Shown piece after piece: positions 3,405-6,179 of a stretch of 64,000 nt of DNA (position 1 is the first letter of the stretch; each line of letters starts with the position of its first letter). Under the pieces are notes generated by a model. It was given only the letters and a program-made list of their open reading frames with translations, searched no databases and was not told where the DNA came from. The translations under genes and the position numbers were made by a program. Source of the DNA: a virus (Duplodnaviria > Heunggongvirae > Uroviricota > Caudoviricetes); the IMG/VR virus record IMGVR_UViG_2721755712_000001; one strand, 5' to 3'.

Positions 3405-3660
3405 TCGAACTGTCCTTGTTGTTTTTCTCCTTCACTAAAGGCCGTGTACTTTTCGCTTCGCGTGAAGAACCAGAGGCAACAATCGCCCCCACGTTCGCAA
3501 CAACTGACGCTTGATTATCTAAACGTTCATTCAGCAACCGAACGGTAGTCTCTAGTTCATCAAGACGTGACATAACACGACCGCTAAACAATTCGGCCAA
3601 AATTTGACGTAAAGAACGAGGACGTTTAGTTGCAGAAGTGAAATAGGTTTGACGTGCCAT
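3166..3660 (-). CDS. hypothetical protein (C-terminal half low-complexity, extent uncertain)
   Basis: 164-aa ORF; N-terminal 80 aa look protein-like. Confidence 0.35.
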   Translation of the reverse strand: MARQTYFTSATKRPRSLRQILAELFSGRVMSRLDELETTVRLLNERLDNQASVVANVGAIVASGSSREAKSTRPLVKEKNNKDSSNGKFSKKEAETNGLRSHYSFTGDGSRSSRPEPFDAGFIHHHTSVDDNYHHSSRASCHSGWDDGGCDTSSSSSYSGSCCD

Positions 3661-3808
3661 GTGGACTCCATCCAGTGTCAGAAAGAGTTGCGGCTGGCGA
3701 TCGCCAGCCGCCTTTCTCGTTCCATCCTGGAACTGTGTCTTACCGACACATTGTCATCCTGACGCTGATAAGATACATGATTTAAAATGATAGGTAAACA
3801 CTTACTTA

Positions 3809-4453
3809 CTACTTGTTATAAACAAAACCAATATCTTTCTTGTGAGGCATATCTGCTGCTGAAAAAGCTGCGATCTTCGCGAGTCGATCACATATTTCAT
3901 TTTCACGATGCCCGGCGTGACCTTTAACCCACTTCCAGCGAACATTATGTCGACTTGCGGCCTCATCCAGACGCTTCCACAGATCAACATTCTTTACCGG
4001 TTTTTTGTCAGAAGTCATCCATCCATTGCGTTTCCACCATTTCATCCACTGTGTCATGCCGTTTTTCAGATACTGGCTATCAGAGTACAAAATAACGTTG
4101 CATGGATATTTCAAACGCTCCAGCCCGATAAGTGCCCCCATCATCTCCATGCGGTTATTGGTGGTGCTATGAAAACCATCTGAGAACTCGCGTTCCTCAC
4201 CACCATACTGGAGAACTATACCGTAACCGCCCGGGCCACCCGGATTTTTAAGGCAAGAGCCATCACTGAAGATTTTCACGGTTTTAAGCTGGGGATTGAA
4301 CTCTACGACAGGCGTTGTGGAATTGGTGCGGGGAGAATTTTTGTTTTTGTCATTTTTGCGAGTTTTTGCTTGCGATCGGGCTGGTGTCTTCGTCGTCATA
4401 TAAACTCCTGAATCAAGCGCCGCGCCGATTTTTTTTTCCTCGCGCGTGCGCAC
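3809..4453 (-). CDS. rnhA: ribonuclease HI
   Basis: [15 protein letters not shown] ... SDSQY ... [14 protein letters not shown], canonical RNase H core; basic N-terminal extension. Confidence 0.85.
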
Positions 4454-4985
4454 ACGCGTGCGTGTTAATAATTATTAAAATAAACAAATTACTTCCCAGA
4501 ACAGGTTTTTATAAACCTGAACTGAACGAACGAAGTGAGTGAAGTTCACCTCGAACGAAGTGAGAGGTTGTCTTTTCAGGTAATACTCTCCCAGGGAGGT
4601 GAGTACAAAATTTCCTCACCAACCTGGTCGTTTCATAACCTGAAAAGTTATGACCTAAGTCTACTGCCAGCTTAGGCTTGGGAAGTTATGGATGACAGCA
4701 CCCCAGAACCGAGATCTTCCCACACTTTATGAAGGGGAGTACTGGATTCAACCTCTCGAAACACCCCAGACTCGACAATCATAAAGTGACCCTTGTCTCT
4801 GCTCACTTTGGTTCCCCCTTCCCCAACCCCTAAACGGTGCCGGTTCTACGCTGGTAGTGAGCTTTTTTAAACCTGACGCCAGTGACGCTTACCCCCACCC
4901 ATCAGGTCGAGCCTCCAGTCTACGACTGGAAACTATCAGATCTTAGCACTTACAATTCACTTTATGAATAGTTTGTACTTATCTA
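4440..4985. other. ORF-free structured intergenic region (~550 bp)
   Basis: No ORF of 60 aa or more; GC-rich palindrome CGCGCGTGCGCACACGCGTGCG, direct repeat GAACGAAGTGAG x2, several hairpins. Confidence 0.5.
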
Positions 4986-5215
4986 TCATTTCGATTGATT
5001 ATTTTTTCGACCATGTAGTTGAACATTCAAGGCAAACACCTCGTTGATCAACTCACCTAAAAGCTGTTCAACAAGTTCGCGATGCTCCCCAAGATGCAAG
5101 CACTTAATTGCCCATTCGTACAAGTTGAAAGCCTGCTCACGATCTTTCATCATTTCACGAGCCTGGGCCAGAAAATCGCTCTCTACGAGCGCAACGACAT
5201 TAGTCGGGTATGACA
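4986..5215 (-). CDS. hypothetical protein
   Basis: Start moved to ATG preceded by AAGGAAACCAAC. Confidence 0.4.
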
Positions 5216-5322
5216 TGTTGGTTTCCTTAAAGTGGTTCATAAAATCGATTTTAAAGCGTCTGGGAAGGGGTTCTAGTGGATTCTGTAGTGGTGTTCAGGT
5301 CTGGGAGTCTCTGATATAAAAC

Positions 5323-5381
5323 AGCCTGCTTCCGTATATTAATAATTAATATGTAGTTATTTATATATACAGAAGCAGGCT
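5323..5381. repeat. long hairpin element, copy 1 (AGCCTGCTTCCGTATAT / ATATACAGAAGCAGGCT)
   Basis: 17-bp inverted repeat with AT-rich loop; second copy at 55599..55653. Confidence 0.7.
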
Positions 5382-5402
5382 AATTACAGACGCCAGAACA
5401 AA

Positions 5403-5996
5403 CTAAGCAGCCTTCTTTGATTGTCTTTTTTTCCTGATCACATTCGCAGGATCATACCCTCCCAGACTTTTCATGACGTCCAAAGGGATCTTGCTTATAG
5501 AGTGCCCAGCGTCCTGACAGAATCCTCGAAAAACAACGAGCATACTGCCACCGGGGTTGATGTTTACTTCTACCTGACCCAAATTGACGTCAGGCTCGAC
5601 AAACGCTACGCGGCCACCAGACAGAATAATCGTCTCATTCGCACACTCTGTTGCACGCTCATACCACTTTGTATCGAGGGATTGAGGAATTAGCATCACT
5701 GTTGTAACTCCGCGAGCCTGCTCACGTATAGCCGCATCAATCCAGGGGGAGATTTTGGAGTAGGGTGGATTGAGGAAGGCAATTGTACCTGGCTGTCCCC
5801 ATTCAGATTTCAAAGCATCACGCTCAACGCCTATGAAATTAGGCAGCTTCGCATTGTCCTTGTTGCAGGCAACGTCAACATCAAATGTCACTCCAAGATA
5901 ACGTTGAATGGCAGAAAACAGCCAGTCAGGTGTTCTCCAGAGGTCACGAAGAGAGTTGTCGCGCTTTCGCTGTTTGATTTTTTCGGCTGCAATCAT
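5403..5996 (-). CDS. dam: N6-adenine DNA methyltransferase (Dam-like)
   Basis: NPPYS catalytic motif. Confidence 0.75.
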   Translation of the reverse strand: MIAAEKIKQRKRDNSLRDLWRTPDWLFSAIQRYLGVTFDVDVACNKDNAKLPNFIGVERDALKSEWGQPGTIAFLNPPYSKISPWIDAAIREQARGVTTVMLIPQSLDTKWYERATECANETIILSGGRVAFVEPDVNLGQVEVNINPGGSMLVVFRGFCQDAGHSISKIPLDVMKSLGGYDPANVIRKKRQSKKAA

Positions 5997-6179
5997 CTTC
6001 TTTCTCGATAGGTAAGTGATTACCTATTTTTGCATTTGATTTTATGTCTGGCAATCAAATAAAACGCGCCAGAAATGCAAACGAGAAGCTCTCTGGCGCG
6101 TTTTTGTGGTGCTGGATATGTGATTGGCTTACCCAGCACTATAAAGCTCTCTATGGGCTTTATTTTCAGTAGGGGGACG

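Follow-up and report, generated by a model that had tools for sequence, protein, structure and literature searches.

The 64,000-nucleotide (nt) window analysed here, the whole stretch of DNA from the virus record IMGVR_UViG_2721755712_000001, contains a gene-free gap of 586 nt (4400-4985) between the genes for RNase HI and a 76-amino-acid (aa) protein. We conclude, with a probability of about 80%, that this gap holds a stand-alone minus-strand gene for a large, highly structured non-coding RNA of ~440-520 nt that belongs to the plasmid-prophage state of its carrier; that an independently transcribed, structured RNA gene of some kind lies here is highly probable. The carrier in this region is an SSU5/pHCM2-type phage-plasmid, 100% identical to the E. 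coli plasmid pCP53-113k, and at the locus itself the similarity is 98.6% to phage Cyrano of E. coli LF82, 93% to Salmonella phage SSU5 and ~90% to Klebsiella phage-plasmids. The initial annotation had marked 4440-4985 as free of open reading frames (ORFs) between RNase H and the next gene, and had suggested a non-coding RNA, a second origin or a packaging site. The ORF-free region is real and slightly wider than was noted, and the first of the three suggestions now has strong support from the conservation of the promoter, the 5' hairpin, G-U pairing specific to one strand, compensatory changes and published RNA sequencing (RNA-seq). The elements that define the gene are as follows.

4963-4968, minus strand: -35 hexamer, TTCATA in the window (TTTACN or TTTAAA in other lineages)
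4940-4945, minus strand: -10 hexamer TAAGAT with TGC ahead of it (extended -10)
4912-4932, minus strand: P0, hairpin at the 5' end of the predicted transcript, UUUCCAGUC GUA GACUGGAGG, -14.8 kcal/mol, z-score (z) -3.2
4492-4911, minus strand: core of ~420 nt delimited by cross-lineage conservation, from GCUCG... to ...CUGGGAAG

A sigma-70 promoter was present in all 73 distinct upstream variants, though the spacer sequence diverges. These variants share a -35 hexamer (TTYAYN), a spacer of 16-18 nt (17 nt in most) and a TAnnAT -10 hexamer, mostly with a TGn extension, and the distance from the -10 hexamer to helix P1 is always 30-37 nt. The predicted transcription start is at ~4933. A hairpin beginning at the predicted +1 and occupying the first ~20 nt was found in 12 of 12 distinct variants tested, built from at least eight unrelated stem sequences, and many lineages carry a GC-rich discriminator (CTACCCGC, CCCGCCG), from which we infer a kinship with stable-RNA promoters. 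The only plus-strand promoter-like site, at 4927-4956, is directed away from the RNA. At the other end, the transcript is likely to stop in the A/U-rich stretch at 4466-4491, or it may extend to a point after the GC hairpins near 4417.

Transcription of the locus is visible in the published RNA-seq data on the LF82/Cyrano lysogen (Misson et al. 2023, PMC9928086, S1 Table), which are given as log2(fpkm+5), fpkm being fragments per kilobase per million mapped reads. The Cyrano feature CYRAN_81 corresponds to window positions 4672-4806, inside the core. Its values were 6.82/6.92 in BLB (LB to stationary phase), 9.34/9.02 in B1, 6.94/6.89 in B6, 8.97/8.23 in MB1 (read as macrophages, 1 h) and 10.35/10.30 in MB6 (macrophages, 6 h), with 3.1-5.8 for CYRAN_80 upstream and 2.6-5.0 for CYRAN_82 downstream (PMC9928086). 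The CYRAN_81 spot stood 11-40x above both flanking genes in all five conditions, with its peak at 6 h inside macrophages, and the level of the next gene downstream was background. The spot is therefore transcribed on its own, independently of its neighbours, in keeping with the promoter found in every upstream variant. The libraries, deposited in GEO as GSE154648, yield both plus- and minus-strand profiles (PMC9928086). In the same data, the highest signal of the element by far, 723-fold above the prophage background, belongs to CYRAN_43 (Cyrano OV696614, 40268-40822), recorded as a 'hypothetical protein' near the integrase and repressor (PMC9928086).

Conservation sets the core apart from everything around it. 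When ten lineages were aligned across window positions 3700-5450, identity to the window was 94-100% over 4500-4900, even in lineages that reach no more than 64-88% in RNase H, the small gene and the methylase. The right edge is sharp, at 4912/4913, where identity drops to 52-65% within a few bases, and left of ~4490 it is down to 47-71%. Because the core stays in place in the three of the ten lineages that have unrelated DNA instead of RNase H, the element moves together with the small gene upstream rather than with RNase H.

The core was present in 90 of 90 loci first collected through the small protein or by similarity, which comprise 64 distinct sequences of 90.8-100% identity. In PLSDB, 691 plasmids carry the element (Klebsiella 310, Escherichia 194, Enterobacter 88, Salmonella 49, Citrobacter 24, Cronobacter 10), as do 231 of 5,426 complete E. 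coli genomes. In these genomes its location is almost always a plasmid of ~110 kb, and none of them annotates it. Remoter homologues of the small protein (60-64% identity) led to a second, divergent clade (L091-L095 and further members from metagenome and IMG/VR scans) with the same locus layout, whose gap is 57-69% identical to the window gap (BLAST E 1e-23) and is thus homologous. L007, L008, L009 and L013, like the entire divergent clade, carry unrelated genes in place of RNase HI. The swap point in L007, L008, L009, L013 and L091 lies directly downstream of the RNA module (~4400-4425 down to ~3700), with breakpoints right after the A-run, and the replacements include a betT fragment, hypothetical genes and, in the divergent clade, an unknown protein of 200 aa with a weak Tad2-like gene after it.

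A metagenome scan with the invariant 22-mer of the RNA (described below) gave 63 loci. Seven environmental metagenome contigs (L102, L103, L131, L136, L149, L150 and L151) were set aside as chance or repeat matches unrelated to the RNA: they hold the exact 22-mer CAACCTCTCACTTCGTTCGAGG in unrelated contexts and have no other likeness to it. In these contigs CAACCTCTCACTTCGTTCGAGG sits in two recurring sequence families, one of which resembles a dispersed repeat. A third clade was sought in IMG/VR with degenerate two-part patterns, which returned only known contigs and chance matches in coding DNA (L237, L243, L244); the pattern AGAGGTTG...CAACCTCT was too unspecific. As far as the scans reach, the RNA family appears restricted to SSU5-type phage-plasmids of Enterobacteriaceae and to two clades.

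The initial annotation had mentioned several hairpins, which understates the case: the region contains many inverted repeats, and as a whole it folds far better than shuffled sequence, at -210.5 kcal/mol (z -6.1) on the minus strand and -172.1 kcal/mol (z -5.8) on the plus strand, with none of 100 shuffles folding as well. In an alignment of 30 sequences (A1), RNAalifold proposed 90 pairs, 24 of them changed on both sides. Its fold of this mixed alignment was partly different, and several of its helices were replaced by better-covarying ones; the final structure was assembled by hand after a search of all column pairs for covarying helices. This structure of 86 hand-assigned pairs in 13 helices was scored with a pair counter against 500 shuffles and against partners slid by 1-3 columns. 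Paired cells made up 99.4% (shuffled 94.4%, slid 38-54%), 26 of the 86 pairs were changed on both sides (shuffled 15.6 +/- 2.0, with 0/500 reaching 26; slid 3-7), and the covariation score was 0.247 (shuffled 0.147, slid 0.04-0.07). Compensatory pairs thus exceed both kinds of control. Double changes arose independently within the close clade in P1, P2, P3, P4 and P8, for example CACUUUAUG/CAUAAAGUG to CAUUCUAUG/CAUAGAAUG in L014. Most members of the divergent clade cap P3 with the tetraloop GAAA, and L094 with UUCG, a GNRA-UNCG swap typical of real RNA hairpins.

The strand can be read from the same data. Many pairs are constant or frequent G-U pairs, few are A-C pairs, and the RNAalifold consensus is more stable on the minus strand (-223) than on the plus strand (-191); the RNA is thus read from the minus strand, in the same direction as the genes. 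Judged from the alignments, such compensatory, G-U-tolerant changes on one strand are the signature of RNA, not of duplex DNA.

The anatomy of the RNA, in the order of the transcript, is listed below. Fractions give compensatory pairs per helix, counted in clade-specific registers where MAFFT had misaligned helices.

4871-4907, minus strand: P1 hairpin with invariant internal GAUGGGUGGRGG; 5/8 outer pairs compensatory, 99.2% of cells pair
4802-4861, minus strand: P2 domain, stem CUCAC/GUGAG around invariant UACCAGCG, P3 and a purine-rich strand; 3/5
4823-4843, minus strand: P3 hairpin, inside P2; 4/7
4806-4824, minus strand: purine-rich strand GGGGAAGGGGGAACCAAAG, inside P2
4723-4788, minus strand: P4, CACUUUAUG/CAUAAAGUG, around P5 and AGAGGUUG; 5/9, with independent double changes in L014/L016
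4737-4773, minus strand: P5, inside P4; 4/9
4749-4756, minus strand: invariant AGAGGUUG, inside P4
4679-4722, minus strand: P6, UGGGAAG/CUUCCCA, around P7 and the invariant junction GAUCUYGRUUCUGGGGU; 3/7, 100% of cells pair
4690-4703, minus strand: P7 hairpin, inside P6; 2/5, 100% of cells pair
4653-4677, minus strand: P8 hairpin with conserved loop CUGGCA; 6/10, 100% of cells pair
4572-4647, minus strand: P9 long arm, base CUUUUCAGG/CCUGAAAAG, middle CCAGG/CCUGG, tip GGUGAG/CUCACC; tip 3/6
4549-4567, minus strand: P10 hairpin, stem CCUC/GAGG, loop UCACUUCGUUC, which is repeat copy 1 (plus-strand 4552-4564)
4518-4548, minus strand: P11 hairpin, stem UGAACU/AGUUCA, loop carrying repeat copy 2 (plus-strand 4527-4539); 2/6 (GC to AU, UA to CG)
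4495-4505, minus strand: P13, last conserved small hairpin, CCUG UUC UGGG; one-sided changes only (UG to CG, GU to AU), 95% of cells pair
4466-4491, minus strand: A/U-rich, poorly conserved stretch UAAUUUGUUUAUUUUAAUAAUUAUUA, where conservation falls after the core
4417-4465, minus strand: two GC-rich hairpins and an A9 run, just ahead of the RNase HI ribosome-binding site

The base of P9 has one compensatory pair, and an alternative local hairpin at 4634-4652 fits too, also with one. P10 is invariant in all sequences, hence without covariation, and overlaps the invariant 22-mer CAACCUCUCACUYCGUUCGAGG. Besides this 22-mer, the long invariant unpaired tracts are GAUGGGUGGRGG, UACCAGCG, GGGGARAGGGRGAAYCAAAG, UUGUCGA, GAUCUYGRUUCUGGGGU and CUGGCA. 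A long-range pairing of AGAGGUUG (4756-4749) with CAACCUCU (4570-4563) is possible; it never varies and competes with P10. A pairing of the purine tract with CUCCCCUU (PK1) is likewise possible, with two compensatory pairs but clashes with P4 and P5.

The palindrome and the repeat that the initial annotation had singled out are peripheral features of this RNA. The GC-rich palindrome exists, at 4441-4458 with overlapping 12-nt arms, as part of the two GC hairpins outside the conserved core. These hairpins fold only modestly better than shuffles (z -1.6 and -2.0), a CGCGAGRA motif within the stretch is kept in both clades, and together with the A9 run they possibly form a leaky terminator or part of the 3' tail of the RNA. 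What had been called a tandem repeat does consist of two exact copies of CGAACGAAGTGAG, at 4527-4539 and 4552-4564, but they form a spaced direct repeat (25 nt from start to start) rather than a head-to-tail array. On the RNA strand they are the shared loop sequence UCACUUCGUUC of the adjacent hairpins P10 and P11, and both clades keep two copies of the loop motif UCAC-N-UUCGUUC, the second loop varying in length. Elsewhere in the 64 kb, CGAACGAAGTGAG has one near-match (two mismatches), and three matches in total are within chance.

As for how the RNA may work, transcription would begin near 4933 from the sigma-70 promoter with its extended -10. The 5' hairpin, whose shape is kept while its sequence is free to vary, would be protective, and the ~420-nt core folds into at least a dozen helices (P1-P13), many of them proven by compensatory changes. 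As a folded RNA, the product would work in trans while its carrier is a plasmid-prophage, its likeliest mode being that of the RNA component, or the decoy, of a protein complex; it would bind a conserved protein and perhaps sequester it or serve as its scaffold. Two adjacent hairpins display one and the same 11-nt loop, UCACUUCGUUC, an arrangement that resembles a two-fold binding site, and the near-invariance across genera points to a conserved partner, which might be host machinery or a core phage protein. We favour trans-acting protein binding as the mode of action because the loop is duplicated, long single strands are invariant, no antisense target exists, the downstream gene varies and the 5' end resembles that of stable RNAs, and put it forward as a tentative proposal. 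Somewhat more speculative is the idea that the RNA represents a new class of large ornate RNAs, expressed by temperate phage-plasmids as prophages and active in their own right; such an activity could be that of a ribozyme, of a self-assembling scaffold like ROOL or GOLLD, or of a decoy disarming a conserved host factor or defence. The remaining probability falls to other activities, for example a ribozyme or a self-assembling RNA.

A related locus deserves description in its own right. At L096:3226-3938 (plus strand), and also in L097 and L098, a small protein 70% identical to that of the window is followed by a ~710-nt gene-free gap and two RNase H genes. The gap sequence has no similarity to the window RNA and none of its invariant motifs, yet L096:3250-3720 folds strongly (-163.9 kcal/mol, z -5.75) and matches nothing in Rfam. 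It may be an unrelated structured RNA in the same slot. Were the window RNA to represent the new ornate class considered above, the 'small gene, then big RNA' locus would be a cassette that exchanges unrelated structured RNAs, as this element hints.

Several points weigh against a stand-alone RNA gene as proposed here or against parts of its description. The terminator scan called no canonical terminator after the RNA, and both RNA ends are predictions. The RNA-seq support comes from one strain and consists of gene-level counts. Covariation rests mainly on two clades and minor variants, and some helices compete: the base of P9 with the local hairpin, P10 with the long-range pairing, and P11 with a 3' stem. 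The two candidate pseudoknots have had a weak test: the pairing over long range is invariant, and PK1 conflicts with P4 and P5. Nothing points to a protein partner, neither family nor fold is informative for the 76-aa protein next to the RNA, and the non-homologous structured sequence beside its close homologue in L096 argues against a specific pairing of the RNA with this protein.

The same observations bear on other explanations of the region. A long 5' leader that would control the downstream genes in cis by attenuation, antitermination or processing, the abundant RNA being the terminated leader, is unlikely. It would suit the orientation, which matches that of the downstream genes with no strong terminator called between, the excess of 11-40x over the downstream gene, which is the pattern of terminated leaders, the mutually exclusive conserved alternatives (P9 base or local hairpin, P10 or long-range pairing), and the co-travelling module that ends in GC hairpins and an A-run right before the next ribosome-binding site. 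There is, however, no constant target: depending on the lineage, RNase HI, unrelated hypothetical genes or the 200-aa unknown protein follow downstream. With 450 nt and at least 12 helices the RNA is far bigger than known attenuators, it matches no riboswitch or leader family in Rfam, and stable RNAs typically have a 5' hairpin and a GC-rich discriminator such as many lineages show here. A replication primer at an R-loop origin is less probable still; here a G-rich transcript like RNA II of ColE1 (reportedly the subject of work by Masukata and Tomizawa) would hybridise downstream, be cut by the adjacent RNase H and prime lytic or plasmid replication. The size of ~450-520 nt and the strong folding do recall RNA II, the RNA strand has G-clusters (GGGUGGGGG and GGGGUUGGGGAAGGGGG), an A/T-rich stretch follows with ACGCGCGAGGAAAAAAAAAUCGG just downstream, RNase HI adjoins in many lineages, and the RNA is expressed in the plasmid state. 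The ACGCGCGAGGAAAAAAAAAUCGG region may also resemble the pMB1 RNase H cleavage region. Against a primer, GC skew is monotonic with no switch at the site, there is neither an antisense RNA I-like gene nor a match to Rfam RNAI (RF00106), replicon typing assigns the plasmids to IncFIB and puts the replication gene elsewhere, several lineages and the divergent clade have no RNase HI beside the RNA, the A-run being lost in that clade as well, and the motif CGCGCGAGG is not enriched in the window. The second origin suggested at the outset therefore finds no positive support in skew, RNA I or Rfam matches, and the IncFIB typing accounts for replication elsewhere.

It is extremely improbable that the region is a DNA-level site (pac/cos, recombination or partition) or a small protein gene with an incidental transcript. 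Nucleotide-level conservation is very high, the Cyrano annotators called a 44-aa ORF (CYRAN_81, minus strand), and a 46-aa ORF on the plus strand at 4535-4675 retains a short LERSERL in both clades. Yet changes that keep pairs, with G-U on one strand, are an RNA signature and not expected of a DNA site, and the packaging site of the initial annotation is further disfavoured by the terminase genes lying ~60 kb off (large subunit at 65,948-67,204 of pCP53-113k, element at ~98.8-99.4 kb). The 44-aa ORF is frameshifted in L008, L014, L016, L057, L060 and L156, and its divergent-clade counterpart has no start codon and ends at a different place. The plus-strand ORF is cut to 23 aa in L008, its starts and ends differ in the divergent clade, and the shared residues are those of the invariant 22-mer only. 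Differences between the clades lack 3-periodicity (46/55/56 by position mod 3), and no ORF on either strand is kept between them. We thus return to the stand-alone gene for a structured RNA, whose surroundings are as follows.

5996 to 5403, minus strand: Dam-type methylase gene
5216 to 4986, minus strand: gene for the 76-aa protein, of no known family
4399 to 3809, minus strand: RNase HI gene (Pfam RNase_H, E 2e-45), with its Shine-Dalgarno sequence AGGAG at 4405-4409

Mechanical ORFs inside the gap reach at most 46 aa, and none is conserved. In the database records the gap is unannotated, with CYRAN_81 as the sole exception. The description of the gap as the longest non-coding stretch in the early region is right for the co-oriented gene block of 1-20 kb, according to the ORF list; beyond it there are larger gaps, such as that near 21.0-21.8 kb. 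The 76-aa protein has no Pfam family and 29 homologues only, all in Enterobacteriaceae; its AlphaFold model is a three-helix fold (predicted local distance difference test score 79.5) without a match in a Foldseek search of the PDB (E > 5), and a genome-collection scan with this protein gave two Kluyvera loci only. Between the Dam methylase and the small gene, at 5322-5381, a long inverted repeat, AGCCTGCTTC...GAAGCAGGCT with an A/T-rich loop of ~40 nt, is present in all aligned lineages and is probably a terminator that keeps transcription from upstream out of the small gene and the RNA gene. In the gap that follows RNase HI, at 3719-3764 (minus strand), two small hairpins with loop GGA, GUCAGGAUGAC and GUUCCAGGAUGGAAC, give a weak CsrB-like match (16.8 bits, E 0.067, far under the gathering score) and could be candidate CsrA-binding sites. 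Further away, the phage-plasmid has a four-tRNA cluster (Ser-TGA, Thr-TGT, Tyr-GTA, Asn-GTT) at window positions 45184-45837 (minus strand). The rest of pCP53-113k (L235, 44776-94385) contains host-like metG (methionine-tRNA ligase) and apbC, a complete type I restriction-modification system hsdM/S/R, and an S24 peptidase adjoining a DNA polymerase III theta gene.

The most conserved DNA in this part of the genome is thus an unannotated RNA of ~450 nt and not a protein gene. SSU5/pHCM2-type phage-plasmids are common in clinical Enterobacteriaceae, including pHCM2 of S. Typhi, occur in 4% of complete E. coli genomes and also spread resistance genes; in the lysogen, the RNA signal rises about ten-fold inside macrophages. 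To our knowledge, large structured RNAs under such constraint are nearly always machines or regulators of central processes (RNase P, tmRNA, 6S, ribozymes), and new ones are rarely found in well-studied hosts. Annotation pipelines currently miss the RNA or call a spurious ORF on it, and its function can be tested directly in systems open to genetics, Cyrano in E. coli LF82 and SSU5 in Salmonella LT2.

Comparison with known RNAs began from a permissive cmscan of window positions 3500-6000 with Rfam 15 (4227 models, including GOLLD, ROOL, HEARO, OLE, raiA, 6S, tmRNA, RNase P, group I/II introns, riboswitches, C4 and RNAI). It gave three chance-level matches, none in the core, the best of them on the GC hairpins with 21 bits against a gathering score of 56. 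The divergent-clade loci had no Rfam match either, so the scan proposed in the initial annotation leaves an RNA that matches no described family. ARAGORN found no tRNA or tmRNA at the locus, and our literature search found no paper on the sequence or on an RNA at this locus. A blastn-short search for complementary targets across the whole 113,610-bp plasmid gave chance matches only (best 13 nt, E 0.63), and the window holds no complement of the repeat motif.

Among characterised systems, RNA II of ColE1/pMB1 shares with the present RNA the ~500-nt folded transcript, the G-rich tracts, the position upstream of an A/T-rich stretch and A-run, a nearby RNase H gene and production in the plasmid state. 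In contrast to RNA II, our RNA has no RNA I antisense partner, no skew change, an IncFIB replicon and no sequence homology, and neither RNase H nor the A-run accompanies it throughout. The immunity RNAs (P1/P7 c4, P4 CI, N15 CB; Rfam C4) are likewise non-coding RNAs of plasmid-prophage lysogeny with a short repeat in the region. They are 70-80 nt long, however, and pair with complementary repeats in their own operon, whereas the RNA described here is ~450 nt, has no complementary target and does not match the C4 model. RNAs of the 6S/CsrB type are abundant, stable and structured and bind a conserved protein, and the two identical loops recall the repeated motifs of CsrB; but no 6S or Csr model matches within the RNA, there are only two loop copies, and no GGA motif is conserved between the clades.

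The closest likeness in kind is to GOLLD and ROOL, and also to HEARO, OLE and raiA, which are large (>400 nt), multi-helix RNAs with long invariant single-stranded tracts. Like them, the present RNA is borne by mobile elements or phages, was found by conservation and covariation, and has no assigned function. It differs from all five in matching none of their Rfam models, it is smaller than GOLLD and ROOL, it occurs only in SSU5-type phage-plasmids of Enterobacteriaceae, and a sigma-70 promoter of its own drives its expression in the prophage. We regard it as a new RNA family within a known kind, the large orphan structured RNAs of mobile elements, distinct from each family described there so far.

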